Source: a virus
Strand: one strand, 5' to 3'
Length of the DNA: 64,000 bases
Virus record (IMG/VR): IMGVR_UViG_3300017917_003339
Location: 1-64,000 of that record
Positions within the stretch are counted from its first letter, which is position 1. Each line of letters begins with the position of its first letter. The notes below the pieces were generated by a model. It was given only the letters and a program-made list of their open reading frames with translations, was not told the DNA's origin and searched no databases. Position numbers and translations under genes: made by a program. Shown here piece after piece: positions 2,715-61,595 of this stretch.

Positions 2715-3743
2715 TTAATTTTTTAATTTTAATAACCATTGTAATTTGGCTTTAATGTTATATAAATTCAAACTAAAACTTTGTAACCATGTGATAAACT
2801 TTCTATATTTGTAAGCGAATTTTAGTTTTTTAACAATACCTTCATGTGAGGTAGGTGACACTTTCATTATCCATGGCATCCAACTTATATCATCAGAAGC
2901 CACTATTGGAACCTTAGCTGTAACAAAATCAGCTGTTACAATATTGAAAGATTCCGAGAAAGATACTTGCATTCCGATATCCATTTTAGAAGCAACTTCT
3001 AAAAATTCAGCGTGTTTGTACCATCTATGTTCAATCAATTCATGTTTAGAATGTTCAAACAACGCTCGAATATTTTTTAACACATTATCCCCAGATTGTT
3101 CAGTTCTAGTTCCATTGATATGGAATCTTAATTTTTTACCAATAAGCTCAGCAAATTCAATAGCCGCCATTGCTTGTTGGTATGTATTTTTCATTGGTCT
3201 AATAGCACCGAAAGAACCAATATCAACGTGGTCATTACTTTTCACATGCTCTTTTGGTGTGAATGGTTTTGCTTTATAAATATTAGGTAAAAAGATAAAC
3301 TTACCTTCTGGGAAACAGTAACTTAACTGTTCCGTTAGTTCAGTTGTGTTAGGAGCTATTTCAATTTTCAAATCATCGATAGAAGCATATTGTTTAATCC
3401 ATCTAGTTGCGATACCTTCATTGGCCAAAAATGGCGCTTTTGAATGTAACCTTACTATCCATCTTCTGTTCTTGTGTCTTTGGATTTGAAATAATTCTTT
3501 GAATTTTGCTGGTGGAACCCATATGGCCTCAATTATAACTACATCTGGATTGAATTTAGTAACAACCTTGTCGATAGCATTTGAGTCAACAACTGGGGTG
3601 ATTTTGGCATCAAAATCATTTTCATTTAGATAATTAACAACAAAACTAGCAGAATTAAATAACCCAGAAGTGACACCATAAGTGTCTTTTACTCTGTCAC
3701 ATGTTATAAATTGTATACGTTTTTTTGGTCTTTTTTCTTCCAT
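2715..3743 (-). CDS. Glycosyltransferase (GT-B/GT4-like)
   Basis: FGAIRPMKN and SFSESFNIVTAD...VPIVAS GT-B motifs; ATATTTAT motif upstream. Confidence 0.7.
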   Translation of the reverse strand: MEEKRPKKRIQFITCDRVKDTYGVTSGLFNSASFVVNYLNENDFDAKITPVVDSNAIDKVVTKFNPDVVIIEAIWVPPAKFKELFQIQRHKNRRWIVRLHSKAPFLANEGIATRWIKQYASIDDLKIEIAPNTTELTEQLSYCFPEGKFIFLPNIYKAKPFTPKEHVKSNDHVDIGSFGAIRPMKNTYQQAMAAIEFAELIGKKLRFHINGTRTEQSGDNVLKNIRALFEHSKHELIEHRWYKHAEFLEVASKMDIGMQVSFSESFNIVTADFVTAKVPIVASDDISWMPWIMKVSPTSHEGIVKKLKFAYKYRKFITWLQSFSLNLYNIKAKLQWLLKLKN

Positions 3744-3820
3744 GATTGTTGTTTAATAATAAATATATAAACAACGTCTAAACTAGTATTTTTTTTATGT
3801 TAATTTTGTAGAATTTTTTG

Positions 3821-3915
3821 TGGCTAGGGCAGGGCTCGAACCTGCGACCTCTCTTTGCTTTTAACAATGTTATTACGTCTAATAACGAGCGCTCTACCAA
3901 CTGAGCTACCTAGCC
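3821..3915 (-). ncRNA. tRNA-like RNA with a branched, anticodon-less arm
   Basis: GGCTAGG/CCTAGCC acceptor, canonical D and T arms; anticodon arm replaced by two hairpins (GTTATTA-GACG-TAATAAC and TTG..CAA). Confidence 0.75.
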
Positions 3916-4153
3916 GTTTTCTAGTCTATTCCCAGTGTCAACCATGGCAGTAAAGTGTTCTAGACCACTTTTGTCAATTACCTATTGCTAGGGACTTAAC
4001 CGTTGGATTTCTTGCGGCCAATATTAGGGTCTTCACCTAAAAGAGACTCTTGTTCTCGGAAACCACTTGTGCTTCCATCGCCTTTTGCGACTCTTGACCT
4101 AATTGTGATGCAAATATACTAACTTTTTAATCTAAAGTCAAATTTTCACCAAA

Positions 4154-4807
4154 TTATTTTTTAATTTCAACCACAATTGGTTTATTTTGAACGTTGTAGT
4201 TGAAGTTTAGCGTTGATGCGTTGACAAACACACCACCATCTGGGAACTCAAATTTACCATAAGCCTCATGTATGTGACCACACACAAACAATTTTAAGTT
4301 TGTCATTTCAGCTGACTTCTCCAACAGATAAGGACAACCAGTAGATACACCTCTTAGAGTCAAATCCAAGATACCTTTCATTGGTCCGTGTGTAATAAGA
4401 ACATCAGTGTCAAGCGGTATCATATCCCAATGTCTGCAAATGTCAGTACCCATTCTGTTGAAAGCCCAATCGTAGAACCATGGTTGAACTGGTGAACCCC
4501 AGAACTTTACGCCATCGATTTCAACACCACTATCATTTAGATAAGTAATGTTTGGGTACTTTTCTTGAAGCATTTCATTAACAACAAAACCAGTTGTCTT
4601 TTCAAACCAGAAATCATGATTCCCAGCGATAAAAATTTTATGTGTGTATGGTAATTCATTGAACCATTCTAAGAAGGCTTCAATTTCTTTAAAGCTACCT
4701 CTTCCTGACACATCACCAGCGTGTACCAACACATCCCCACCTTCTAACCAATCAGGTGGGATGTGCAAGTGTTGATTATGTGTATCGCTTATGCAAGTTA
4801 TTTTCAT
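4154..4807 (-). CDS. Metallophosphoesterase (MPPED/239FB-like)
   Basis: SDTH, HAGD, AGNHD, THGP, GHIHE. Confidence 0.9.
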   Translation of the reverse strand: MKITCISDTHNQHLHIPPDWLEGGDVLVHAGDVSGRGSFKEIEAFLEWFNELPYTHKIFIAGNHDFWFEKTTGFVVNEMLQEKYPNITYLNDSGVEIDGVKFWGSPVQPWFYDWAFNRMGTDICRHWDMIPLDTDVLITHGPMKGILDLTLRGVSTGCPYLLEKSAEMTNLKLFVCGHIHEAYGKFEFPDGGVFVNASTLNFNYNVQNKPIVVEIKK

Positions 4808-7046: not shown

Positions 7047-9026
7047 TTAAAGATTGATTAAAGATAAATTTATGTTCTTTTTTTCAATGTCTACACTAGA
7101 TACAATTACATGAACCATATCACCAAGTCTAATTTTGTGACCTGTGTTGTAACCCTTGATACAATGGTTATTCACATCAGCTTGATACGTATCCCCTTGT
7201 ACCTCAGACAACTTGATAAGTCCCTCACACTTGTTTTCAAGTATCTCAACAAAGATACCGTACTCAGTAACCGAACTCACGATTCCCTTGAATACTTTGC
7301 CAATGTTATCATTCATGTAAACACATTGCATGAATTTGATTGAATCTCTTTCAGCCTTTTGAGCCTTTTGTTCTCTGGCCGACAAGTGTTGACACTTGGT
7401 TTCAAGCTTCTCAATCTTTGGCAGCGTTGGTTTGTTTTCCAAATACAAACTAAGCAATCTGTGAACGATTACGTCTGGATAACGTCTGATTGGACTGGTA
7501 AAGTGGCTGTAGTCTTTGAATCCAAGACCGTAGTGACCAATGTTCTTTGTAGAATAGTTGGCTTTCTGCATGGTTCTTACAACCAAGTTGTTAATCATGT
7601 CTTCCTCAGCAGTTCCTCTTACATCAATCAATAACTGATTAAGAGACCTTGTGGTTTCCTCTGGTGTGTCTATGCGTATGTCATATCCAAACTGTGAAAT
7701 AAACTCTTTTAAAGAGGCTAATTTTACTTCGTTTGGTTTGTCATGGGCTCTGTTTACGTTAGGCAACCCTCGGCTGTTTATGTATTGGGCAACGTGTCTG
7801 TTTGCCAACAACATAAATTCCTCAATCAACTTGTTTGAGTCTTTGGCAACCTTGAAGTGAATACCAATTGGCTTGTTGTTTTCATCCAACTTGAACTTAA
7901 CCTCTTGCTTGTCAAAGGAAATTGAACCTCTCTTTGAACGAGTCTTACGCATTCTCTGAGCTATCTTATTTAACAGTCTAACAGCATCAAACATTTTCTT
8001 TACTTCCGTAGCATATCTCATACTACTATCAATATTCATGTTTTTTATAAATTCAAAATCAGATATGTCAGTTTCCCATTTACCTTCCGATTCAATAATT
8101 GTTTGCGCTTCTTCGTATGTAAGTCTACAATCAGAGTTTATTACAGTTCTACCGAACCATTCTTCCAACACATGACCGTTTTGGTCAATCTTAAACACCG
8201 CTGAGAAACACAACTTGTCCTCGTTAGGTCTAAGACTACACAATCCATTAGACAAGTTCTCAGGAAGCATTGGAACACATCTGTCAACTAGATACACACT
8301 GGTACCTCTGGCAAACGCTTCTTTATCCAACTGTGTATCTGGTCGCAAGTAATGTGATACGTCAGCAATGTGAACACCAACATACAATTCACCGTCAACC
8401 CATTCAACACTCAACGCGTCATCAAAGTCTTTAGCATCCGCTGGGTCAATGGTAAACGTCAATACGTTACGCATATCTCTGCGCTTGTCAATCTCAGCTT
8501 GTGTGATTTCTGTTGGGATTGCTCTAGCCTCAGCCAATACTTCTTCATCAAAGTCGTATGGCAACCCATATTCTTCAAGAATACTGTGGATTTCAGTTTC
8601 GTGTTCACCAGCTTCACCCAACACCTTAACAACTTCACCGTTAGGGTTCTTGGCATCATCTTTCCATTCAGTAAGTCTAACCACAACCTTTTGCCCATCC
8701 TCAGCGTTATTAATCGCGTTTAATGGAATATAAAAGTCAACTGGTAGTTTGTTACTATCAGGGATAAAAAATGCGAATTTGGGACTTATTTGAAGCGTAC
8801 CCACAAACTCTGTTCTGAATCGTTCAACGATTTCAATTACTTCACCTTCCATTGCACGACCAACACCTTCTTTCACACGGATTTTAACTTTATCCAAGTG
8901 CAATGCTTTGTTGGTGTTAGACTTGTGAATGTAGATGTCTTTTGGTAGGTTTGGGTCAGTCAAGTATGCTGAACCACTGGCGTTTACACTAATTCTTCCT
9001 TCTAAAATATCTCCTATGTTAATCAT
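7047..9026 (-). CDS. rnr: Ribonuclease R (RNB family)
   Basis: TIDPADAKDFDDALS, HIADVSHY, IEEFMLLAN, HFTSPIRRYPD, C-terminal S1 domain. Confidence 0.95.
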   Translation of the reverse strand: MINIGDILEGRISVNASGSAYLTDPNLPKDIYIHKSNTNKALHLDKVKIRVKEGVGRAMEGEVIEIVERFRTEFVGTLQISPKFAFFIPDSNKLPVDFYIPLNAINNAEDGQKVVVRLTEWKDDAKNPNGEVVKVLGEAGEHETEIHSILEEYGLPYDFDEEVLAEARAIPTEITQAEIDKRRDMRNVLTFTIDPADAKDFDDALSVEWVDGELYVGVHIADVSHYLRPDTQLDKEAFARGTSVYLVDRCVPMLPENLSNGLCSLRPNEDKLCFSAVFKIDQNGHVLEEWFGRTVINSDCRLTYEEAQTIIESEGKWETDISDFEFIKNMNIDSSMRYATEVKKMFDAVRLLNKIAQRMRKTRSKRGSISFDKQEVKFKLDENNKPIGIHFKVAKDSNKLIEEFMLLANRHVAQYINSRGLPNVNRAHDKPNEVKLASLKEFISQFGYDIRIDTPEETTRSLNQLLIDVRGTAEEDMINNLVVRTMQKANYSTKNIGHYGLGFKDYSHFTSPIRRYPDVIVHRLLSLYLENKPTLPKIEKLETKCQHLSAREQKAQKAERDSIKFMQCVYMNDNIGKVFKGIVSSVTEYGIFVEILENKCEGLIKLSEVQGDTYQADVNNHCIKGYNTGHKIRLGDMVHVIVSSVDIEKKNINLSLINL

Positions 9027-27150: not shown

Positions 27151-28713
27151 TTAAACTAATTTGGCACGTTCTCTAACCTCTTCAAAGGTCCATTCTTGGG
27201 TTAGTTTACCCATGTTAAACACTTCTACTAATTCGTCTTTTACAGTCTCAAAATCAGGTTCAGCTGATGTTACAGTTCTGTATGTACCATCATCGTTTTT
27301 AACCAATTTCAATCGACCTTTTTTAGACTTCTTGAATGAGCGAGTAATATTACCGTCAGCATCCATTTCAGTTGGTGATTTAACCACGTCGACCTCTTTA
27401 CCATCCAACACAGCAAAGCATGCTTTGGTTGCGAAGTTTTGAGTATCACGGTCAATACCAGCTTGTAGCAATTTACCACCCATACCCAACGCTAAGTTCT
27501 CTGGAGAAATCTTTTCTTCTTCAAGCAACGCGTAGATTTCTTTGATAGATTCCAAGTTGATACCATCACCTTGAATCACACGTACTTGTGGTGGCAATAC
27601 TTTGTAACCTTTATCGTTTACAGTGTAACCGAATTTGTCAAAAAGAATACGGAAAATCTCTCTAAGTGAGTTGATTACGTGTCCAGAATCAGGACGGATA
27701 ACGAGTTGGTTGCCAGGCTCGGCAGGTCTAGAAAGGATAAGGTCTTTCAATTCACCACCCCAATAATCAGAACATGCTCTAAAGATGTTAAATGAGTCAG
27801 AAACACAAGCCACAAGCCCAGTTGGGAACAATGTCAATACGCGTTTCATCATTTCAATTTCACCATCTTCACCTCTAAGTGTCATGATTGAGTGTTCAGT
27901 TGCAGGGATTGACAAACCATAAACGGTGTCAGTGTTGTAGTTTTCTACAATGTACTTAGAGCCCATTAGCGTGTCTGAACCTCTAAAGTTTACAAGGTGA
28001 GCAGAACCACCAATACCCGCTGATTCAACAGAAGATACACCTCTGAAACCGAAGTCATTCAATACGAAATCTACAAGGAAACTTCTAAGAGCATCATCGT
28101 AAGATGTGCAGTTTTTGAACGCTTCGTCAACAATTTTACGAACTTCTCTTGAAAGAGTAGCTACAGTGATAGGATACCACACTTGTAAAAGGATTGTTTC
28201 TAAGAAGTTAGTTAACCAAGCACACTCTGGGTCAAGGCTTTCGATAATCATAAGTACGTTGTGTGTACCTACTACAGTCCCCTCAGGAACAGCTTTGATG
28301 CTTACTGGCAAACGACCATCGTATTTGTCAACGATGTAGTCAAATTTACGTCTGTCAAATACATCGTCACGACCAAACACACCATGTTTGGTTCCAAGAT
28401 AATCATACGCTTCATCAATTTCCTCACGTGTGATAGCTAAACCCTCTAGGTATCGTTTCATGATGATTTGAAGACCGTAGAATACAGTTTCTGAGAATTT
28501 ACCACCTCTTGATTCCAAATAGGAAACCATTTTGGTCATTTCAGTACCGTAAAACTCATGATGCGAATACTTGTAAGCATCAGAACAAAGAATTAAATTC
28601 TCTGGTTTTTCTAGGATTTTAGCAATTGGTTTTGCTAAGGATTCAACCAACGCCATGTCGTTGATTTCAATCGCTTCCCTAAGTCGCTCAATAAGATATT
28701 TTTTTAGTCTCAT
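27151..28713 (-). CDS. nadV: Nicotinamide phosphoribosyltransferase (Nampt/NadV)
   Basis: DAYKYSH, DFGFRG, GSDT, SIPATEHS, VIRPDSG, IQGDG. Confidence 0.92.
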   Translation of the reverse strand: MRLKKYLIERLREAIEINDMALVESLAKPIAKILEKPENLILCSDAYKYSHHEFYGTEMTKMVSYLESRGGKFSETVFYGLQIIMKRYLEGLAITREEIDEAYDYLGTKHGVFGRDDVFDRRKFDYIVDKYDGRLPVSIKAVPEGTVVGTHNVLMIIESLDPECAWLTNFLETILLQVWYPITVATLSREVRKIVDEAFKNCTSYDDALRSFLVDFVLNDFGFRGVSSVESAGIGGSAHLVNFRGSDTLMGSKYIVENYNTDTVYGLSIPATEHSIMTLRGEDGEIEMMKRVLTLFPTGLVACVSDSFNIFRACSDYWGGELKDLILSRPAEPGNQLVIRPDSGHVINSLREIFRILFDKFGYTVNDKGYKVLPPQVRVIQGDGINLESIKEIYALLEEEKISPENLALGMGGKLLQAGIDRDTQNFATKACFAVLDGKEVDVVKSPTEMDADGNITRSFKKSKKGRLKLVKNDDGTYRTVTSAEPDFETVKDELVEVFNMGKLTQEWTFEEVRERAKLV

Positions 28714-40797: not shown

Positions 40798-40798
40798 G

Positions 40799-40870
40799 AG
40801 CGACTAACCAGAATCGAACTGGCATCCTCGACTTGGCAAGCCGATGCACTAACCGTTGTGCTATAGTCGC
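40799..40870 (-). tRNA. tRNA-Gly(GCC)
   Basis: Cloverleaf; TCGGC-TTGCCAA-GTCGA; U73. Confidence 0.9.
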
Positions 40871-43134: not shown

Positions 43135-43207
43135 AGCACTAGACGGGCCTCGAACCCATGACCTCTCCCATACCAAGGGAGTGTTCTGCCTACTGAACTA
43201 CAAGTGC
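43135..43207 (-). tRNA. tRNA-Thr(GGT)
   Basis: CTCCC-TTGGTAT-GGGAG. Confidence 0.88.
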
Positions 43208-43213
43208 ATTTAG

Positions 43214-43287
43214 AGCCTCCGACAGGAATCGAACCTGCGACCTTCTCCTTACAAGGGAGTTGCTCTGGCCTGCTGAGCTACGGAGGC
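43214..43287 (-). tRNA. tRNA-Thr(TGT)
   Basis: CTCC-CTTGTAA-GGAG. Confidence 0.9.
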
Positions 43288-43351
43288 ATAACGGCCTATA
43301 ACGTTTGCCATTCGGTGCATTTTGTTTCTCGCAGAACACTTACTGCTTGTG

Positions 43352-43434
43352 TGAGAGTAGTAGGATTCGAACCTACTCAGGCATAGCCAACGGTTTTACA
43401 GACCGCCCCAGCTCTCCAACTCTGGCGTACTCCC
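43352..43434 (-). tRNA. tRNA-Tyr(GTA)
   Basis: GCGGT-CTGTAAA-ACCGT with long variable arm. Confidence 0.9.
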
Positions 43435-43443
43435 AATATTTAG

Positions 43444-43522
43444 TGGGCCTAGTAGGAATCGAACCTACAAGAATTAACACGATTTTACAGACCGCTGAGC
43501 TCACCACCTGCTCAATAGACCC
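43444..43522 (-). tRNA. tRNA-Tyr(GTA)
   Basis: GCGGT-CTGTAAA-ATCGT. Confidence 0.85.
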
Positions 43523-43527
43523 AAGTT

Positions 43528-43589
43528 CAGGGTGGTGTATCGGTTTCAAATTAAAAGTTTGATGATAATGATTGCTGAAACCACCCTTT
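43528..43589 (-). ncRNA. Helix+CAGCAA RNA presenting an isolated Lys(TTT) anticodon stem-loop
   Basis: AGGGTGGT-TTCAGCAA...TCAAA-CTTTTAA-TTTGA...ACCACCCT-G. Confidence 0.7.
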
Positions 43590-43591
43590 AG

Positions 43592-43663
43592 TTGGAGGAT
43601 AGGGACTCGAACCCTAAAAACGACAGTCAAAGTGTCGTATGTTGCCAATTACATCATCCTCCA
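43592..43663 (-). tRNA. tRNA-Gln(TTG)
   Basis: CGACA-CTTTGAC-TGTCG. Confidence 0.88.
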
Positions 43664-43672
43664 ATATGTTAG

Positions 43673-43754
43673 TTGGGAAAGAGGGACTCGAACCCCCATG
43701 TACTTCGCGTCTTCTGGCTCAAAACCAGAGGTGTTACCATTACACCATTTCCCA
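43673..43754 (-). tRNA. tRNA-Gln(TTG) with long variable region
   Basis: TCTGG-TTTTGAG-CCAGA; 15-nt variable region. Confidence 0.8.
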
Positions 43755-43812
43755 AAATTTCTAATTCTATGCTTGTCCTCACGCAACTCTATGAATTAGT
43801 AACAGTCTCATC
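43755..43812 (-). repeat. Conserved inter-tRNA element, copy 1
   Basis: GATGAGACTGTTA-CTAATTC-ATAG..GCATA-GAATTAG-AAATTT. Confidence 0.8.
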
Positions 43813-43817
43813 AACTG

Positions 43818-43890
43818 AGCGGAAGACGGGACTCGAACCCGCAACCCCCGACTTGGAAGGACGGTGCTCTACCAATTGAGCTACTTCCGC
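43818..43890 (-). tRNA. tRNA-Gly(TCC)
   Basis: GCGGAAG acceptor; loop CTTCCAA. Confidence 0.9.
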
Positions 43891-43952
43891 AAATTTTTAA
43901 TTCTATGCAGACACTTACAAATGGGCCCCTATGAATTAATAACAGTCTCTTC
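43891..43952 (-). repeat. Conserved inter-tRNA element, copy 2
   Basis: GAAGAGACTGTTA-TTAATTC-ATAG..GCATA-GAATTAA-AAATTT. Confidence 0.8.
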
Positions 43953-43955
43953 TCG

Positions 43956-44031
43956 TCGGGATGACTGGACTCGAACCAGCATGATGTCCTGCTCCCAAAG
44001 CAGGCGACTTAACCAATTAGTCCACATCCCG
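43956..44031 (-). tRNA. tRNA-Pro(TGG)
   Basis: CCTGC-TTTGGGA-GCAGG; C1-G72, A73. Confidence 0.9.
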
Positions 44032-44568
44032 TTTAAATTTTTCTACATATTCTAAAACCGTTTCTTCTATTAAATTTCTATACCTACTATGCCAATAAGC
44101 ATGATGTGTTGCACATAGAGGTATTAAATTCTCAGGTTTATTATTGTTTCTATCCCCATCTAAATGGTGAACATCTAACAATAATTTTTCATCACAAACA
44201 ACACATTTATGTTCGTGGTGTAAGAAACATGTTGACCTGTATGCATGTTCTTTCCAGTTTGGGTTTTTATCACCACTTCTAAAGAAAGAGTTTGCACAAG
44301 CATGAGAACATGTAATTTTTTCTCTTTTTGAACCTGATTGAGTTTCAAATTCATTCTCACAAACAGGACAAATTTTAATTATTCGTTCATATTTGAGAAA
44401 ATGTTTTTTCTTTCTATTAGGTTCAAATTTTAAACCATTTATTTCAAATAACGCATCTAACTTTTTATACCCAGCACCATTATTGCTGATATTTAACCTT
44501 TTACAAGCTTCATTTTTAGAACTACATTCTAGTATAATTTTTTCTAATTCTTCTTTTTCGATATTCAT
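44017..44568 (-). CDS. HNH homing endonuclease
   Basis: CPVC, CSHAC, CVVC..DVHHLDGDRNNNKPENLIPLCATHH; stop lies inside tRNA-Pro. Confidence 0.88.
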   Translation of the reverse strand: MNIEKEELEKIILECSSKNEACKRLNISNNGAGYKKLDALFEINGLKFEPNRKKKHFLKYERIIKICPVCENEFETQSGSKREKITCSHACANSFFRSGDKNPNWKEHAYRSTCFLHHEHKCVVCDEKLLLDVHHLDGDRNNNKPENLIPLCATHHAYWHSRYRNLIEETVLEYVEKFKRDVD

Positions 44569-44631
44569 AACTTATTTTTATTATAAATATCATCAAATGT
44601 CGAAAAAATCACTTTTGGGAAATTTTATTTT

Positions 44632-44675
44632 CTGCATCCCAAATGCAGCGGATTAGCCAACTTTCCCACTACCCG
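44632..44675 (-). pseudogene. Truncated tRNA-Pro(TGG), 5' two-thirds only
   Basis: CGGGTAG, D arm, CTGCA-TTTGGGA-TGCAG, then no T arm. Confidence 0.8.
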
Positions 44676-44684
44676 TAATATTTG

Positions 44685-44758
44685 TACCCCCGAAGGGACT
44701 CGAACCCATGACCCCCCGCTTAAAAGGCGGGTGCTCTAACCAACTGAGCTACGAAGGC
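44685..44758 (-). tRNA. tRNA-Lys(TTT)
   Basis: CCCGC-CTTTTAA-GCGGG. Confidence 0.9.
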
Positions 44759-44763
44759 ATTTG

Positions 44764-44836
44764 TTCCCCCGACGGGCCTCGAACCCGCTACCCACTGGTT
44801 AAAAGCCAGTTGCCCGTCCACATGAGCTTCGAAGGA
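44764..44836 (-). tRNA. tRNA-Lys(TTT)
   Basis: ACTGG-CTTTTAA-CCAGT. Confidence 0.88.
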
Positions 44837-44853
44837 ATTTATATTTCTATTTG

Positions 44854-44925
44854 TTCCCCCGCCCAGAGTCGAACTGGATTCCGTAGATTAAAAGTCTACT
44901 GCATCACCACCAATGCTTCGAGGGA
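44854..44925 (-). tRNA. tRNA-Lys(TTT)
   Basis: GTAGA-CTTTTAA-TCTAC. Confidence 0.85.
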
Positions 44926-45009
44926 ATATGTATCTTGCCCCTCAAAACATTGAGGGAATTACTGTTTACTCTTTATCTTCTTTATTGTTTTCATTGTTTT
45001 TATTTTATT

Positions 45010-45087
45010 TGGCCTCCCAGAAGGATTCGAACCTTCCATCCATAAGCCCCCAATGGGCTGCGCTTTTCCTACTAAGCTATGGGACGC
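45010..45087 (-). ncRNA. Atypical tRNA-like gene (loop CATTGGG; Gln/Pro-like)
   Basis: D and T arms intact, CCA encoded; non-canonical anticodon loop and acceptor top. Confidence 0.55.
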
Positions 45088-45101
45088 ATATTTTATTTTT
45101 G

Positions 45102-45196
45102 TCTGGTAAACAGGATTCGAACCTGTGGTAGACACTACCTTTGTGCCCACATCGGATTCCAAGTCCGACCGCTTAAACCATCTCGCGCATTACCAG
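45102..45196 (-). tRNA. tRNA-Pro(TGG) with long (class II-like) variable arm
   Basis: CTGGTAA/TTACCAG, A73; TCGGA-CTTGGAA-TCCGA; 25-nt variable arm. Confidence 0.75.
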
Positions 45197-45210
45197 TTAT
45201 TTTGTTGCAT

Positions 45211-45246
45211 AAAAAAACCCAGTTTAGATTTTACTCTGAACTGGGT
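45211..45246 (-). terminator. Attenuator terminator A
   Basis: ACCCAGTTCAGA-GTAAAA-TCTAAACTGGGT-TTTTTT just 5' of first tRNA. Confidence 0.88.
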
Positions 45247-45271
45247 CTATAATTTGTACTTGCGTACTTTA

Positions 45272-45373
45272 TTATATTGTTGTCAAGTCTGAAAACATGA
45301 CATACCCAGTCGACCTGAACGGTTTCCCGCCCTTAGGTTGATATTGCGTTTGATATGTTTTAGTTGTTTTCAT
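45272..45373 (-). CDS. Leader peptide A (33 aa) MKTTKTYQTQYQPKGGKPFRSTGYVMFSDLTTI
   Basis: Manual translation; codons 2-18 encode only K,T,Y,Q,P,G; contains antiterminator GACTGGGT. Confidence 0.85.
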   Translation of the reverse strand: MKTTKTYQTQYQPKGGKPFRSTGYVMFSDLTTI

Positions 45374-45390
45374 AACTTTGTTTTTTGTTT

Positions 45391-45481
45391 TGTTTATAAA
45401 TATGTTGTTTTTTAAAAAAATTCTGTTTTTGTTTATTAATTTTTACAATGCAAAGATACTAACTATTATAATACAAGTCAA
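45391..45481 (-). promoter_or_regulatory. Dual promoter of leader A: host-type TTGAC..TATCTTTG and phage ACATATTTATAAAC motif
   Basis: TATCTTTG at 45451-45458, TATTTATA at 45395-45402; homologous to 61925-62015. Confidence 0.7.
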
Positions 45482-53034: not shown

Positions 53035-53119
53035 TACAAGGAGCAGGACTCGAACCTGCGACCCTTCGGTCTGGGATTTCTCCCTCGCCAACCGCTCTAA
53101 CCAACTGAGCTACCCCCGT
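53035..53119 (-). ncRNA. tRNA-like RNA with anticodon replaced by GGGA-GAAA-TCCC tetraloop stem
   Basis: Canonical D and T arms; extended arm TTGG-CGA-GGGA-GAAA-TCCC-AGA-CCGA. Confidence 0.75.
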
Positions 53120-53802: not shown

Positions 53803-54030
53803 TTGAATGGATAAACATTTCCAAGTGTTTACCCTAGCAGTTTTTACGCACTAGCACGGCTAAAAAACTACAAAAAACCTACTCGATGTTTTATGCTTGG
53901 ACAAGGGGCTGCACGAGCAACAACCCAGTTGTTCTGGTACAACTTTAAACCCCAAACTTGAGTCGTTGGCACTGAGTCAATAGTTCCGACACAAAGATTC
54001 CTAGGTTTTTGTGTGTTTCCTATTTAGTCG

Positions 54031-54107
54031 TGGGGGAAGCTGGACTCGAACCAGCGACCTTTCGCTCTCCTAAGACAGCGAACATCTGCCAACTGAAATA
54101 TTCCCCC
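54031..54107 (-). ncRNA. tRNA-like RNA with enlarged anticodon arm
   Basis: GGGGGAA/TTCCCCC; TTCGCT-GTCTTAGGAG-AGCGAA. Confidence 0.65.
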
Positions 54108-58317: not shown

Positions 58318-58842
58318 CTAAACAGACATCCTTTTAACCATCTTTCTGTATATTCTATCTTCAAAATCTTTCATCAAAGAATCTGGGATTCTAATTCCTT
58401 TAGATTCGAATTCACCTATAATCTCACGTTTAAGAAATGTACCCTCAACAATTCCATCACCCCATTGGTCACACCAAAGTCCCCAGCTTTTCTTACCAAC
58501 AATCACAGCCTTGACTATGTTTGGGTGTCTGGTTACTATGGGTTTTCCACCAGAGTATTGTCCGTTATCGAATTTTCTAAATGTGTTTTTACCTTCGGAT
58601 TCATTGACATCAAATTCAACATTGACGATAGAACCGCAAAAGGTAAGAATACCTTTCCTATAAGAAGATAGAAAGAAATTGAAGATTTCATTGAAGTTGT
58701 CGGAATACTTTGATAACTTTCTATCAAGTCTGTTACCAGTTTCCTTTTTGCGTAATTCAATACGCTCTTGTTTTGTTAGGCTCCCAAGCGGTCGCCTCCT
58801 GATTGTGTTGTTTTCATATTCTTGTGTTTTTTGTTTAACCAA
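58318..58842 (-). CDS. Hypothetical protein
   Basis: ORF on coding strand. Confidence 0.5.
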   Translation of the reverse strand: MVKQKTQEYENNTIRRRPLGSLTKQERIELRKKETGNRLDRKLSKYSDNFNEIFNFFLSSYRKGILTFCGSIVNVEFDVNESEGKNTFRKFDNGQYSGGKPIVTRHPNIVKAVIVGKKSWGLWCDQWGDGIVEGTFLKREIIGEFESKGIRIPDSLMKDFEDRIYRKMVKRMSV

Positions 58843-59579
58843 TTTAATTTATTCAAGTCAATACTTGAATTAGATTTTACAATATGACCATCTGGAAAAT
58901 GTTTTATCATATCAGACATACTCAATACTGGAAAATCTTTGTCAAAGTTTGCGTTTGGATGTGACCAACCAAATTTAAACAACCAATTCAACAACGCATC
59001 AACATCATAGTCATTATAATCATCCGTAGTACAGTTACCAGTTCTTTTAGATAACTTACTACCCTTATAAAACAATAAACCAGCATGTTGAACATTTGGA
59101 AATTGTTTTTGACCATATACGTTGCAAATCATATCCCACAACTTTTGTTGTTTTGGTAAATTTGTAATGTGGTCCACACCTCTGATTATGTCTGTAATGT
59201 CATAATCATAGTCATCTAATATCGAAGCAAAATTATAGGTTGGATAACCGTTATCTCTAAGGATAACCATATCGTAATCTCCCATGTTTACGTTTAACGT
59301 ACCATCGTCTTTTTTAAACCCTATAGCTGTTGCCACTTGTTTGTATCGGTCAAGTCTGCTACTTTGCTTAAATGTTACATCATAATTTAACCCAAAGTAA
59401 TTCATTTGTTGATATATGAAATCTACATCTGAATCATTGTTCCTAGACAAATCTGTGTCATCGATTCTAAGGATAAAATTACCATCATTTGATTTACTCA
59501 ATAAATAATTGAATAAAGCAGTACGTAATGTCCCTAAATGAAATTTGCCCGTTGGTGAAGGGGCAATTCTTGTTTTCAT
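58776..59579 (-). CDS. Truncated glutamyl-tRNA synthetase-like protein (GluQ/YadB-like catalytic domain)
   Basis: TRIAPSPTG.FHLGTLRTA, LRIDDTD, PTYNFA, IRGVDH, KLSKR; no anticodon-binding domain. Confidence 0.85.
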   Translation of the reverse strand: MKTRIAPSPTGKFHLGTLRTALFNYLLSKSNDGNFILRIDDTDLSRNNDSDVDFIYQQMNYFGLNYDVTFKQSSRLDRYKQVATAIGFKKDDGTLNVNMGDYDMVILRDNGYPTYNFASILDDYDYDITDIIRGVDHITNLPKQQKLWDMICNVYGQKQFPNVQHAGLLFYKGSKLSKRTGNCTTDDYNDYDVDALLNWLFKFGWSHPNANFDKDFPVLSMSDMIKHFPDGHIVKSNSSIDLNKLNWLNKKHKNMKTTQSGGDRLGA

Positions 59580-59600
59580 AATACTATTTTTTATATTTTG

Positions 59601-59673
59601 TGGAGCTGACGGGAGTTGAACCCGCATCCTCTACCTTGCAAAGGTAGCGCTCAGCCAGTTGAGCTACAGCCCC
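59601..59673 (-). tRNA. tRNA-Ala(TGC)
   Basis: G3.U70; CTACC-TTTGCAA-GGTAG. Confidence 0.9.
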
Positions 59674-59735: not shown

Positions 59736-59856
59736 CGGACGCAGTGGGACTCGAACCCACAGCTTTTTCGTGACAGGAAAATTAACTAATGCTGCTGGAG
59801 ATAACCTTGTCAGGTTATGACTTGTTTTTAACATGTTACCCTTACACCATACGTCC
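59736..59856 (-). ncRNA. tRNA-Asp(GTC) with ~50-nt helix+CAGCAG insertion before the anticodon stem
   Basis: GGACGTA/TGCGTCC-G73; TTTTC-CTGTCAC-GAAAA; insert ATAACCT-GACA-AGGTTAT-CTCCAGCAG. Confidence 0.8.
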
Positions 59857-59994
59857 AAAAATACCTTTACATTTCAAAGGTTAAGCAGGTTTAGTTGCGG
59901 ACTTTCCTTCCAGTCAGTGCTTCTTTTTCCAGAGATTGCCTCTATACGCACGTTATCTGACAATTTTAACACGAAGCGACCGTGTTAGCAATCG

Positions 59995-60078: not shown

Positions 60079-60149
60079 GAAGCGCAATTGGTTTCGAACC
60101 AATGTTTCCAGCTACGCGCCAGCGTCCTAAGCCCCTAGACGATACACTT
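60079..60149 (-). ncRNA. tRNA-like RNA (Glu-type D arm) with 5-nt loop
   Basis: GTCTAG..AGGAC; CTGGC-GCGTA-GCTGG; ATTGG-TTCGAAA-CCAAT. Confidence 0.55.
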
Positions 60150-60251
60150 TAACTACTCTCAATACAACTGCCATCATATATTGAGTAGAATGGCCTTGTT
60201 ACTTCACCTTTCAGTTGGCAGACCTACTTGGTTTTTCACTCACCTTTTTTG

Positions 60252-60325
60252 CCGAGATACTGGGATTCGAACCCAGTTCGCACGCCGTGACAGGGCGGCA
60301 TCCTTCGCCAGTGGACCTTACCTCG
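60252..60325 (-). tRNA. tRNA-Asp(GTC)
   Basis: CGCC-CTGTCAC-GGCG; G73. Confidence 0.82.
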
Positions 60326-61220: not shown

Positions 61221-61299
61221 TGGTAGCCTCGACGGGGCTCGAACCCGCATTGCACACCTTGAAAGGATGGCTTCCTAGTCCGATTTAGAAGACAAGGCC
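61221..61299 (-). tRNA. tRNA-Glu(TTC)
   Basis: loop CTTTCAA; imperfect anticodon stem; CCA encoded. Confidence 0.78.
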
Positions 61300-61356: not shown

Positions 61357-61520
61357 TAGGAATGAGTGGATTCGAACCACTGACCTTCTCCCTTATGATG
61401 GGAGTCGTTCTGAATGTGTTTTTTCAACCAACTTAATGGTAATTCATTAAGCACACACCCCGATTGTTGTTATTTACCATCTCCTTAAGGAGCCAATCAG
61501 ACCGCTGAACGTACATTCCT
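61357..61520 (-). ncRNA. tRNA(CAT), Ile2/Met, with ~90-nt structured insertion in the D loop
   Basis: AGGAATG/CATTCCT; GTTC..GAAC D stem split by insert; CTCCC-ATCATAA-GGGAG. Confidence 0.75.
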
Positions 61521-61522
61521 AG

Positions 61523-61595
61523 TGGTACCTCCCAGATTCGAACTGGGGACACCTGCATCTTCAGTGCAGTGCTCTACCAACTGAGCTAAGGTACC
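61523..61595 (-). tRNA. tRNA-Phe(GAA)
   Basis: CTGCA-CTGAAGA-TGCAG. Confidence 0.92.

Follow-up and report, generated by a model that had tools for sequence, protein, structure and literature searches.

Amino-acid operons of the enterobacteria such as trp, his, leu and pheA are controlled by leader-peptide attenuators, and the leaders of thr (Thr and Ile) and ilvGMEDA (Ile, Leu and Val) are multivalent; in pheST of E. coli, which encodes phenylalanyl-tRNA synthetase, an attenuator of this kind controls a component of the decoding apparatus itself. As far as we have found, leader-peptide attenuation has so far been described only for protein-coding operons, and the control of bacterial tRNA genes has, to our knowledge, been described mainly at their promoters, in terms of growth rate and the stringent response. 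Here we report on a 64,000-nucleotide stretch of viral DNA (the window; positions 1 to 64,000 of IMG/VR virus record IMGVR_UViG_3300017917_003339), in which the minus-strand segment 45481-45211 is probably a functional ribosome-mediated (leader-peptide) transcription attenuator tied to the tRNA gene array that follows it. What would be new here is the use of a known attenuation logic on tRNA genes.

The closest logic is that of the thr and ilvGMEDA leaders, with which the viral element shares a short promoter-proximal open reading frame (ORF) with regulatory codons, a set of protector (1:2), antiterminator (2:3) and terminator (3:4) pairings, a region 2 that would be freed by stalling on the regulatory codons, and the sensing of several amino acids by one leader. 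Unlike the leaders of amino-acid operons, it has tRNA genes as its targets, so that the sensed molecule is the product itself; it belongs to a group of leaders that address six or seven isotypes each and sample nearly every anticodon species; and it is phage-borne, in a Bacteroidota-type context, without a Shine-Dalgarno sequence and with its stop codon well past region 2. It bears no sequence or Rfam relationship to those leaders: between 45190 and 45500 no Rfam leader family (His, Trp, Thr or Leu leaders) and no T-box was matched at E <= 10, and at the gathering threshold tRNA was the only Rfam family in the window. The pheST attenuator is cellular, precedes a protein-coding synthetase gene and responds to one amino acid, whereas the present one is viral, precedes tRNA genes and addresses several isotypes. 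T-box riboswitches likewise sense tRNA status and choose between terminator and antiterminator upstream of translation-related genes, but they bind uncharged tRNA directly, without translation, through a specifier loop and T-box motif, and each reads one isoacceptor. In pyrBI a short leader ORF also precedes an intrinsic terminator, but there the translating ribosome enters the terminator and melts it, whereas here 20-34 nt lie between the end of the ORF and the stem.

The nearest published inducible accessory array is the trn operon of Anabaena sp. PCC 7120, a silent array of 26 tRNAs that is induced by translational stress and that resembles the viral array in having an HNH endonuclease nearby and in being switched on when translation is impaired (PMC8421152; PMC10272220). 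Its control differs in that it is not isotype-specific and relies, instead of on a leader, on the RHH protein repressor TrcR, which acts at the promoter through a site overlapping the -10 box (PMC10272220). The terms leader peptide, attenuation and terminator have 0 occurrences in the two Anabaena papers (PMC8421152; PMC10272220), and a paper on huge phages (PMC7162821) makes no mention of leaders, attenuation or terminators. Full-text searches for published control of tRNA genes, or of tRNA arrays in phages, by a leader peptide or by attenuation found none in the library searched, which is not proof of absence.

Leader codons match the downstream tRNA genes

The tRNA genes were called with ARAGORN and Rfam RF00005, and promoters were located with a regular expression over the whole contig together with a promoter scan. 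In the leader ORF of the element, hereafter cassette A (Table 1), the original prediction had claimed that all 17 codons from 2 to 18 encode Lys, Thr, Tyr, Gln, Pro or Gly, and both the sequence and the ORF listing bear this out (17/17). The six isotypes said to lie downstream were likewise recovered, since ARAGORN and Rfam return the claimed list plus one weak gene of the same set. Chance had been put at roughly (1/3)^17; the six residues make up 0.313 of the protein composition of the genome, which supports that estimate and corresponds to a binomial P of 2.6e-9, and when every ATG-initiated ORF of 20-45 codons, on either strand of the 92.5-kb contig, is ranked for enrichment in this set, leader A comes first of 418 (P = 2.7e-9). 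The synonymous variety that had been noted is real as well (ACA/ACT/ACG, AAA/AAG, GGC/GGG, CCT/CCG), and four of the codons are among the rarest of the genome for their amino acid, with shares of 0.08 (ACG), 0.06 (GGC), 0.11 (GGG) and 0.06 (CCG); rare codons in leaders fit a sampling of isoacceptors. Eight anticodon species were scored for this unit, seven of them belonging to array A and the eighth being Gly(gcc) at 40798-40870, and the leader contains a cognate codon for each. Leader A is conserved in the IMG/VR relatives.

Array A, given as fourteen tRNA genes, has the order Pro(tgg), a weak Gln/Pro-like gene, three Lys(ttt), an HNH ORF, Pro(tgg), Gly(tcc), two Gln(ttg), two Tyr(gta), Thr(tgt) and Thr(ggt). 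Its first gene, at 45101-45196 (minus), is a tRNA-Pro(tgg) of 96 nt whose extra arm is long, and the weak gene at 45011-45086 (minus; 33 bits) has an abnormal anticodon loop and can be read as Gln(ttg) or as Pro. The HNH ORF is a passenger and lies outside the switch. The promoter of cassette A is one of five near-identical copies on the contig, four of which precede leader cassettes; a sigma-70-like match (45494-45465) overlaps it, and no other promoter motif was found inside the array (minus strand, 45500-43100). The leader ATG lies 78 nt downstream of the -7 box, and the intervening 5' untranslated region (UTR) has no Shine-Dalgarno sequence and carries a copy of an AACATAT motif that it has in common with cassette B.

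Four cassettes divide the amino acids among them

Run over the whole contig, the promoter expression yielded four cassettes with a common layout, namely a promoter, an ORF of 27-33 codons, a hairpin with a T-run, and a tRNA array. Arrays A to D hold the sets {P,Q,K,G,Y,T}, {F,E,D,A}, {C,V,L} and {S,H,W,I,M,N,R}, which together comprise the 20 amino acids, each in one array. Over codons 2-18, the leader matches its own array at 17/17 codons in cassette A, 13/17 in B, 9/17 in C and 16/17 in D, as against 0-4 matches to foreign arrays in each of the four, and among the 24 permutations of leaders and arrays the true pairing scores 55, with the runner-up at 35. The correspondence extends to anticodons: of the 28 anticodon species in the four arrays, 27 find a cognate codon under standard wobble in the leader of the same cassette, and the one left over is a gene called as 'SeC(tca)'. 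Four Leu anticodons are set against five different Leu codons in their leader, and two Arg(tct) genes plus one Arg(acg) are matched by two AGA codons and one CGC. The promoter and leader of cassette C fall just past the window (contig 64158-64013).

A second conserved promoter class (TTGGAnATTAAAAAATAAGTTGTATCTTTG) occurs inside array B (window 61639-61610, minus) and array D (contig 83598, minus), and a variant of it directly follows array A (window 42856-42827, minus). It provides a leaderless entry through which some tRNAs can escape the attenuators, and it may represent a different temporal class.

The same design recurs in other genomes

The device was also found in two uncultured phages of 635-642 kb, LR745206.1 and LR756502.1, in a 182-kb IMG/VR contig (G003) and in the cultured Tenacibaculum phage Gundel_1; these four genomes contributed 11 elements, which with the four described above make up the 15 studied. 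The amino acids are divided differently among the arrays there. LR745206.1 has {H,F,W,K,R,S}, {E,Y,I,G,M}, {N,R,L,V,I,T,M} and {P,D,Q}, and across this genome, LR756502.1 and the IMG/VR contig the sets are {H,F,W,K,R,S}, {E,Y,I,G,(A,M)}, {N,R,L,V,I,T,(M,C)} and {P,D,Q,(H)}. The leaders of these three genomes track the sets of their own arrays, one of them at 19/19 codons, and in all four genomes with two or more cassettes the true leader-array pairing is the best permutation. The leaders of the P/D/Q arrays are noisier, with Val interspersed. The conserved N-terminal N-I codons are part of an RNA helix and lie outside the sensor. Cassettes of the huge-phage clade share a UTR motif (AAAAGGGAC.., then ..TTTAATATATA) between promoter and ATG, which is missing from the present genome.

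In Gundel_1 (78.8 kb) the leader, at about 72937-72999 of the record, has 20 codons with many for Y, S, C, F and W; it is followed by a terminator and then by genes for a Tyr-like tRNA, Trp, Phe, Ser, a gene with TTGC in its loop, and Ser; two of these tRNA-like genes have no annotation in the record. The device lies at about 72937-73060 of MT732474.1, and because its -7 box ends only 4 nt before the ATG, the leader mRNA may be leaderless. An annotated HNH endonuclease occupies the equivalent place before a tRNA-Pro in this phage.

A pattern scan for the leader-type promoter in close IMG/VR relatives returned 19 loci, with all four leader types among them. Where residues vary in these relatives, alternatives inside and outside the set of the array stand at 7:4 in the sensor columns versus 7:28 after codon 18 (Fisher P = 0.010). 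A strong hairpin with a T-run is found 47-60 nt past the stop codon in 15/15 elements (-10 to -20 kcal/mol, T6-8). In every one of them 20-34 nt separate the end of the stop codon from the terminator stem, and all 15 conserve the frame, the length and the stop spacing.

RNA pairings and the effect of a masked ribosome

The leader RNA of cassette A is much more structured than its shuffles (z = -5.25). Its terminator stem (45247-45216; -15.6 kcal/mol) begins 24 nt past the stop codon, and the claimed pairing of 45304-45311 with the terminator arm at 45239-45246 is exact, comprising eight pairs of which one is G-U. The core of this complementarity is a 7-mer (45310-45304 against 45246-45240), and the duplex of region 2 with the arm was computed at -13.3 kcal/mol. 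The alternative 1:2 fold that had been proposed, in which region 2 is held by region 1 in a protector helix, is present in the computed minimum-energy structure. In all four cassettes the minimum-energy fold consists of a long protector helix and the terminator, and the helix joins early codons, near a shared AACAUA/ACAUAU motif, to a segment at about codons 21-25.

The segment after the sensor is complementary to the 5' arm of the terminator in 15/15 elements, and in each of them the duplex is stronger than the shuffle mean; the fractions for single elements range from 0.000 to 0.29, with a Fisher-combined P of 2.6e-11 over the 15. Terminator sequences vary between elements, and region 2 varies accordingly. 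Cross-pairing of leaders with foreign terminator arms was dropped as a test because many terminators share a CCC/GGG core; since it did not discriminate, shuffles served as the control.

The effect of a ribosome was computed by masking its footprint on transcripts cut just before the 3' arm of the terminator. On truncated transcript A, with the A-site of the ribosome at any of codons 2-17, the arm is paired to region 2 with a probability of about 0.8, and this pairing is lost from codon 18-19 onward. Masking thus allows the antiterminator only from the sensor codons, in agreement with a leader-peptide attenuator. A clear step of this kind is seen in 11 of the 15 elements. When the sensor is defined as the maximal-scoring segment of own-array residues, its end correlates with the position of the step (Spearman 0.91, P = 4e-5, n = 12 elements with a plateau of at least 0.5); sensor ends span codon 13 to codon 26, the two lie within -1 to +3 codons of each other in 11/12, and other footprint sizes shift the step by at most one codon. 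In a series of growing transcripts without a ribosome, the protector forms first and the antiterminator overtakes it only after the 5' arm has emerged.

A proposed mechanism and the points against it

What the analysis provides is the anatomy of the element, the matching and co-variation of leader codons with arrays, the complementarity of region 2 with the terminator arm, and a geometric fit between the stall positions and the antiterminator. The central claim of the original prediction, a leader-peptide attenuator tied to the isotypes of its array, is supported by the sister cassettes, the co-variation, the complementarity and the masking results. From this we infer that the leader is translated and its terminator regulated, together with the sign of the response and what sets it off physiologically, as follows. 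Host RNA polymerase would initiate at the promoter and a ribosome would translate the 33-codon leader. Should the supply of aminoacyl-tRNA run low for Lys, Thr, Tyr, Gln, Pro or Gly, the ribosome would stall within codons 2-18 and cover region 1, and the freed region 2 (codons 21-25) could capture the 5' arm of the terminator as it emerges, so that the polymerase would read into the tRNA array. With fast decoding, the ribosome would move past region 2 to the stop codon, and regions 1 and 2 would pair again or region 2 would stay covered; the terminator would form and transcription would end at the T-run. The outcome would be negative feedback on the supply of just those tRNAs that run short in decoding. 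The phage thus probably makes the array tRNAs only when the matching codons are read slowly, and with the sister cassettes included, each of the 20 amino acids would have its tRNA genes placed behind a matching sensor.

Several observations weigh against this mechanism. When the full terminator is present, equilibrium folding of cassette A gives the terminator a probability of at least 0.9 at every ribosome position. The expectation that the antiterminator would be competitive in folding therefore stands for transcripts cut before the 3' arm and fails for those with a complete terminator. A purely thermodynamic switch is rejected on the same ground, as the terminator always wins at equilibrium on the full transcript with a masked ribosome; because it is always favored at equilibrium, any switch must be kinetic, as in the classical attenuators. 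Truncated transcript A also favors the antiterminator at equilibrium without any ribosome (0.84), so that termination by default would require the protector to persist kinetically. No clear masking step is seen in four of the 15 elements (W01_2, W02_1, W02_2 and G003_2). The stop codon lies 10 codons beyond region 2, and a terminating ribosome would leave region 2 uncovered, unlike in trp. The GGC codon of leader A has no cognate tRNA in array A under standard wobble, Gly(gcc) being 2.3 kb beyond the array and behind another promoter. Finally, the internal promoters of cassettes B and D bypass their attenuators.

Alternative explanations

The alternative that survives best, which we nevertheless regard as unlikely, accepts the device as described and takes its natural signal to be amino-acid starvation or the charging state of the host, in the manner of a stringent-like, general response to slow translation. 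It is established for attenuation that a ribosome on a leader senses aminoacyl-tRNA only and cannot tell scarce tRNA from uncharged tRNA. General translational stress is also what induces the trn operon of Anabaena, the closest case known from cells (PMC8421152; PMC10272220). Such a signal, however, would need neither isotype-matched sensors that co-vary with their arrays in every genome nor a sampling of nearly every anticodon species, and the synthesis of tRNA gives no relief from amino-acid starvation.

Marginally less probable is a coupling of the opposite or another kind, in which translation of the leader promotes readthrough, through a pyrBI-like push or shielding of the polymerase or through a block to Rho, so that plentiful tRNA would give more array RNA as a positive feed-forward or functional check. 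The codon matching by itself leaves the sign of regulation unfixed, and without a ribosome the antiterminator is not strongly disfavored at equilibrium. The geometry, on the other hand, is that of stall-induced readthrough, with the antiterminator strand directly after the sensor and a permissive stall window that coincides with the sensor run. The spacing between stop codon and stem, which in 15/15 elements is beyond the reach of a terminating ribosome, excludes a pyrBI-type melting of the terminator, and positive feedback on tRNA supply would have no obvious use.

We consider it very improbable that the element acts through RNA only, as a tRNA-binding riboswitch of the T-box kind or as a constitutive terminator, with the ORF incidental. 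Its strongly structured leader RNA would suit such an element; the failure to match T-box or any leader family of Rfam even at E <= 10 would not, nor would a codon match that is confined to one reading frame and holds at the level of the amino-acid set, with varied synonymous codons, in ORFs whose frame, length and stop spacing are conserved throughout. Chance, meaning an unrelated small ORF with its own terminator upstream of an array, is the least probable of all: short ORFs are plentiful in an AT-rich genome and L/V/C-rich ones like leader C are not rare, but the enrichment of leader A in its set argues against it, and because the pattern is repeated in three paralogs, in the 11 elements of the other genomes and in the 19 loci of close relatives, it is effectively refuted.

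Genomic context and neighboring features

Table 1. Positions of the features of cassette A, of its sister cassettes and of other genes in the window
Feature	Position	Strand	Basis or remark
Promoter A, Bacteroidota type (TTGACT, spacer, TAtcTTTG)	45481-45451	minus	Regular-expression scan, promoter scan
5' UTR, A-rich, largely unstructured	45444-45374	minus	Unpaired in minimum-energy fold
Leader ORF, ATG, 33 codons + TAA	45373-45272	minus	Sequence, ORF listing
Sensor codons 2-18, all K/T/Y/Q/P/G	45370-45320	minus	
Region 1, core of 5' strand of protector helix	45358-45352	minus	Inside sensor codons; helix extends to 45376
Region 2, codons 21-25	45311-45300	minus	Alternative partner of region 1 or of terminator 5' arm
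Small spacer hairpin across stop codon	45276-45248	minus	Fold
Intrinsic terminator	45247-45211	minus	5' arm 45247-45239, 3' arm 45224-45216, then T7
Regulated tRNA array A	45196-43134	minus	ARAGORN, Rfam RF00005
HNH homing-endonuclease-like ORF inside array A	44568-44017	minus	ORF listing
Cassette B	62015-61757	minus	Promoter 62015-61985; leader 61907-61818, rich in F/A/D/E; terminator 61789-61757
Array B	61745-59600	minus	Phe x2, 'SeC(tca)', Glu, Asp x2, Ala x2 and insertion-bearing tRNA-like genes
Cassette C, terminator and array	63989-63959 (terminator); array to 62659	minus	Cys, Val, Leu x2, Leu, Val, Leu
Phage RNase R/II	7047-9026	minus	RNB, CSD and S1 domains
Nicotinamide phosphoribosyltransferase (NAMPT)	27151-28713	minus	

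The window forms the first 64 kb of one contig of 92,494 bp and 35.8% G+C, on which ARAGORN finds 47 tRNA genes, nearly all on the minus strand. The contig also carries passenger ORFs of phage style (HNH-like and GIY-YIG-like) and auxiliary genes for RNase R/II, NAMPT and a GluRS-like catalytic domain. Its promoters are of the Bacteroidota form (TTG, spacer, TAnnTTTG), and its hosts are taken to be of Bacteroidota type. In protein similarity, two genomes of uncultured phages in GenBank, 634,780 and 642,428 bp long, come closest, and the close IMG/VR relatives are contigs of 205-362 kb; because its relatives reach these sizes, the contig is probably a piece of a much larger phage genome. The RNase R/II shares about 50% identity with ORFs of the 635-642-kb uncultured phages. 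When the HNH ORF of array A was used as a probe for relatives among viral contigs, no match was obtained; the GluRS-like ORF found nine loci, most of them without adjoining tRNA arrays; and blastn of the array against GenBank phages gave mainly generic tRNA matches, Gundel_1 alone being informative.

The fifth copy of the leader-type promoter, in the region of window 4141-3820 (minus), is followed after about 200 nt by tRNA-Ser(aga). No leader ORF accompanies it and, at permissive thresholds on 3700-4200, no Rfam family other than tRNA was found there; the region could be an unrecognized structured RNA or a degenerate cassette.

Array B contains tRNA genes that are apparently split by long insertions, at window positions of about 61360-61530, 60100-60290 and 59740-59860 (minus), in which the anticodons CAT and GTC were read by eye; ARAGORN and Rfam both missed these insertion-split genes. 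The gene with the CAT anticodon could be the reader of the ATA codon that is conserved in leaders B-D. The tRNA called by ARAGORN as 'SeC(tca)' (window 61221-61299, minus; 37 bits with Rfam) is present in close relatives and may read TGA or be unusual in some other way; under table 11 the window's ORFs are open. Directly after the last tRNA gene of array B lies an ORF of 283 aa (window 58776-59627, minus) that has only the class I Glu/Gln tRNA-synthetase catalytic domain, of GluQRS-like size, and that probably belongs to the transcription unit of the array. Elsewhere, window 53035-53119 and 54030-54107 (minus) gave a weak Rfam tRNA match and an ARAGORN tRNA with a two-base 'anticodon'.

Implications for phage tRNA supply

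On a broader reading, which we offer tentatively and hold to be somewhat less likely than its contrary, the four cassettes amount to a complete surveillance of decoding for the 20 amino acids, in which a shortage switches on only the matching block of tRNA genes and the virus thereby encodes an inducible, isotype-resolved tRNA homeostat that doubles as a counter-defence; the shortfall could then arise from a mismatch in codon usage, from the shut-off of the host by the phage, or from anticodon-nuclease defences of the host. Such a leader would sense how fast given codons are decoded, a rate that is itself determined by what the regulated genes produce, which would make this the most direct feedback conceivable for tRNA supply. 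The device would explain the sorting of the tRNA genes of large phages into isotype blocks, and it suggests how phages avoid the cost of constitutive tRNA synthesis yet can replace depleted host tRNAs. It would also be a natural device, compact and programmable, for sensing how fast particular codons are translated, and its presence in the cultured phage Gundel_1, whose host (Tenacibaculum sp. AHE14PA) is known, makes the idea directly testable.

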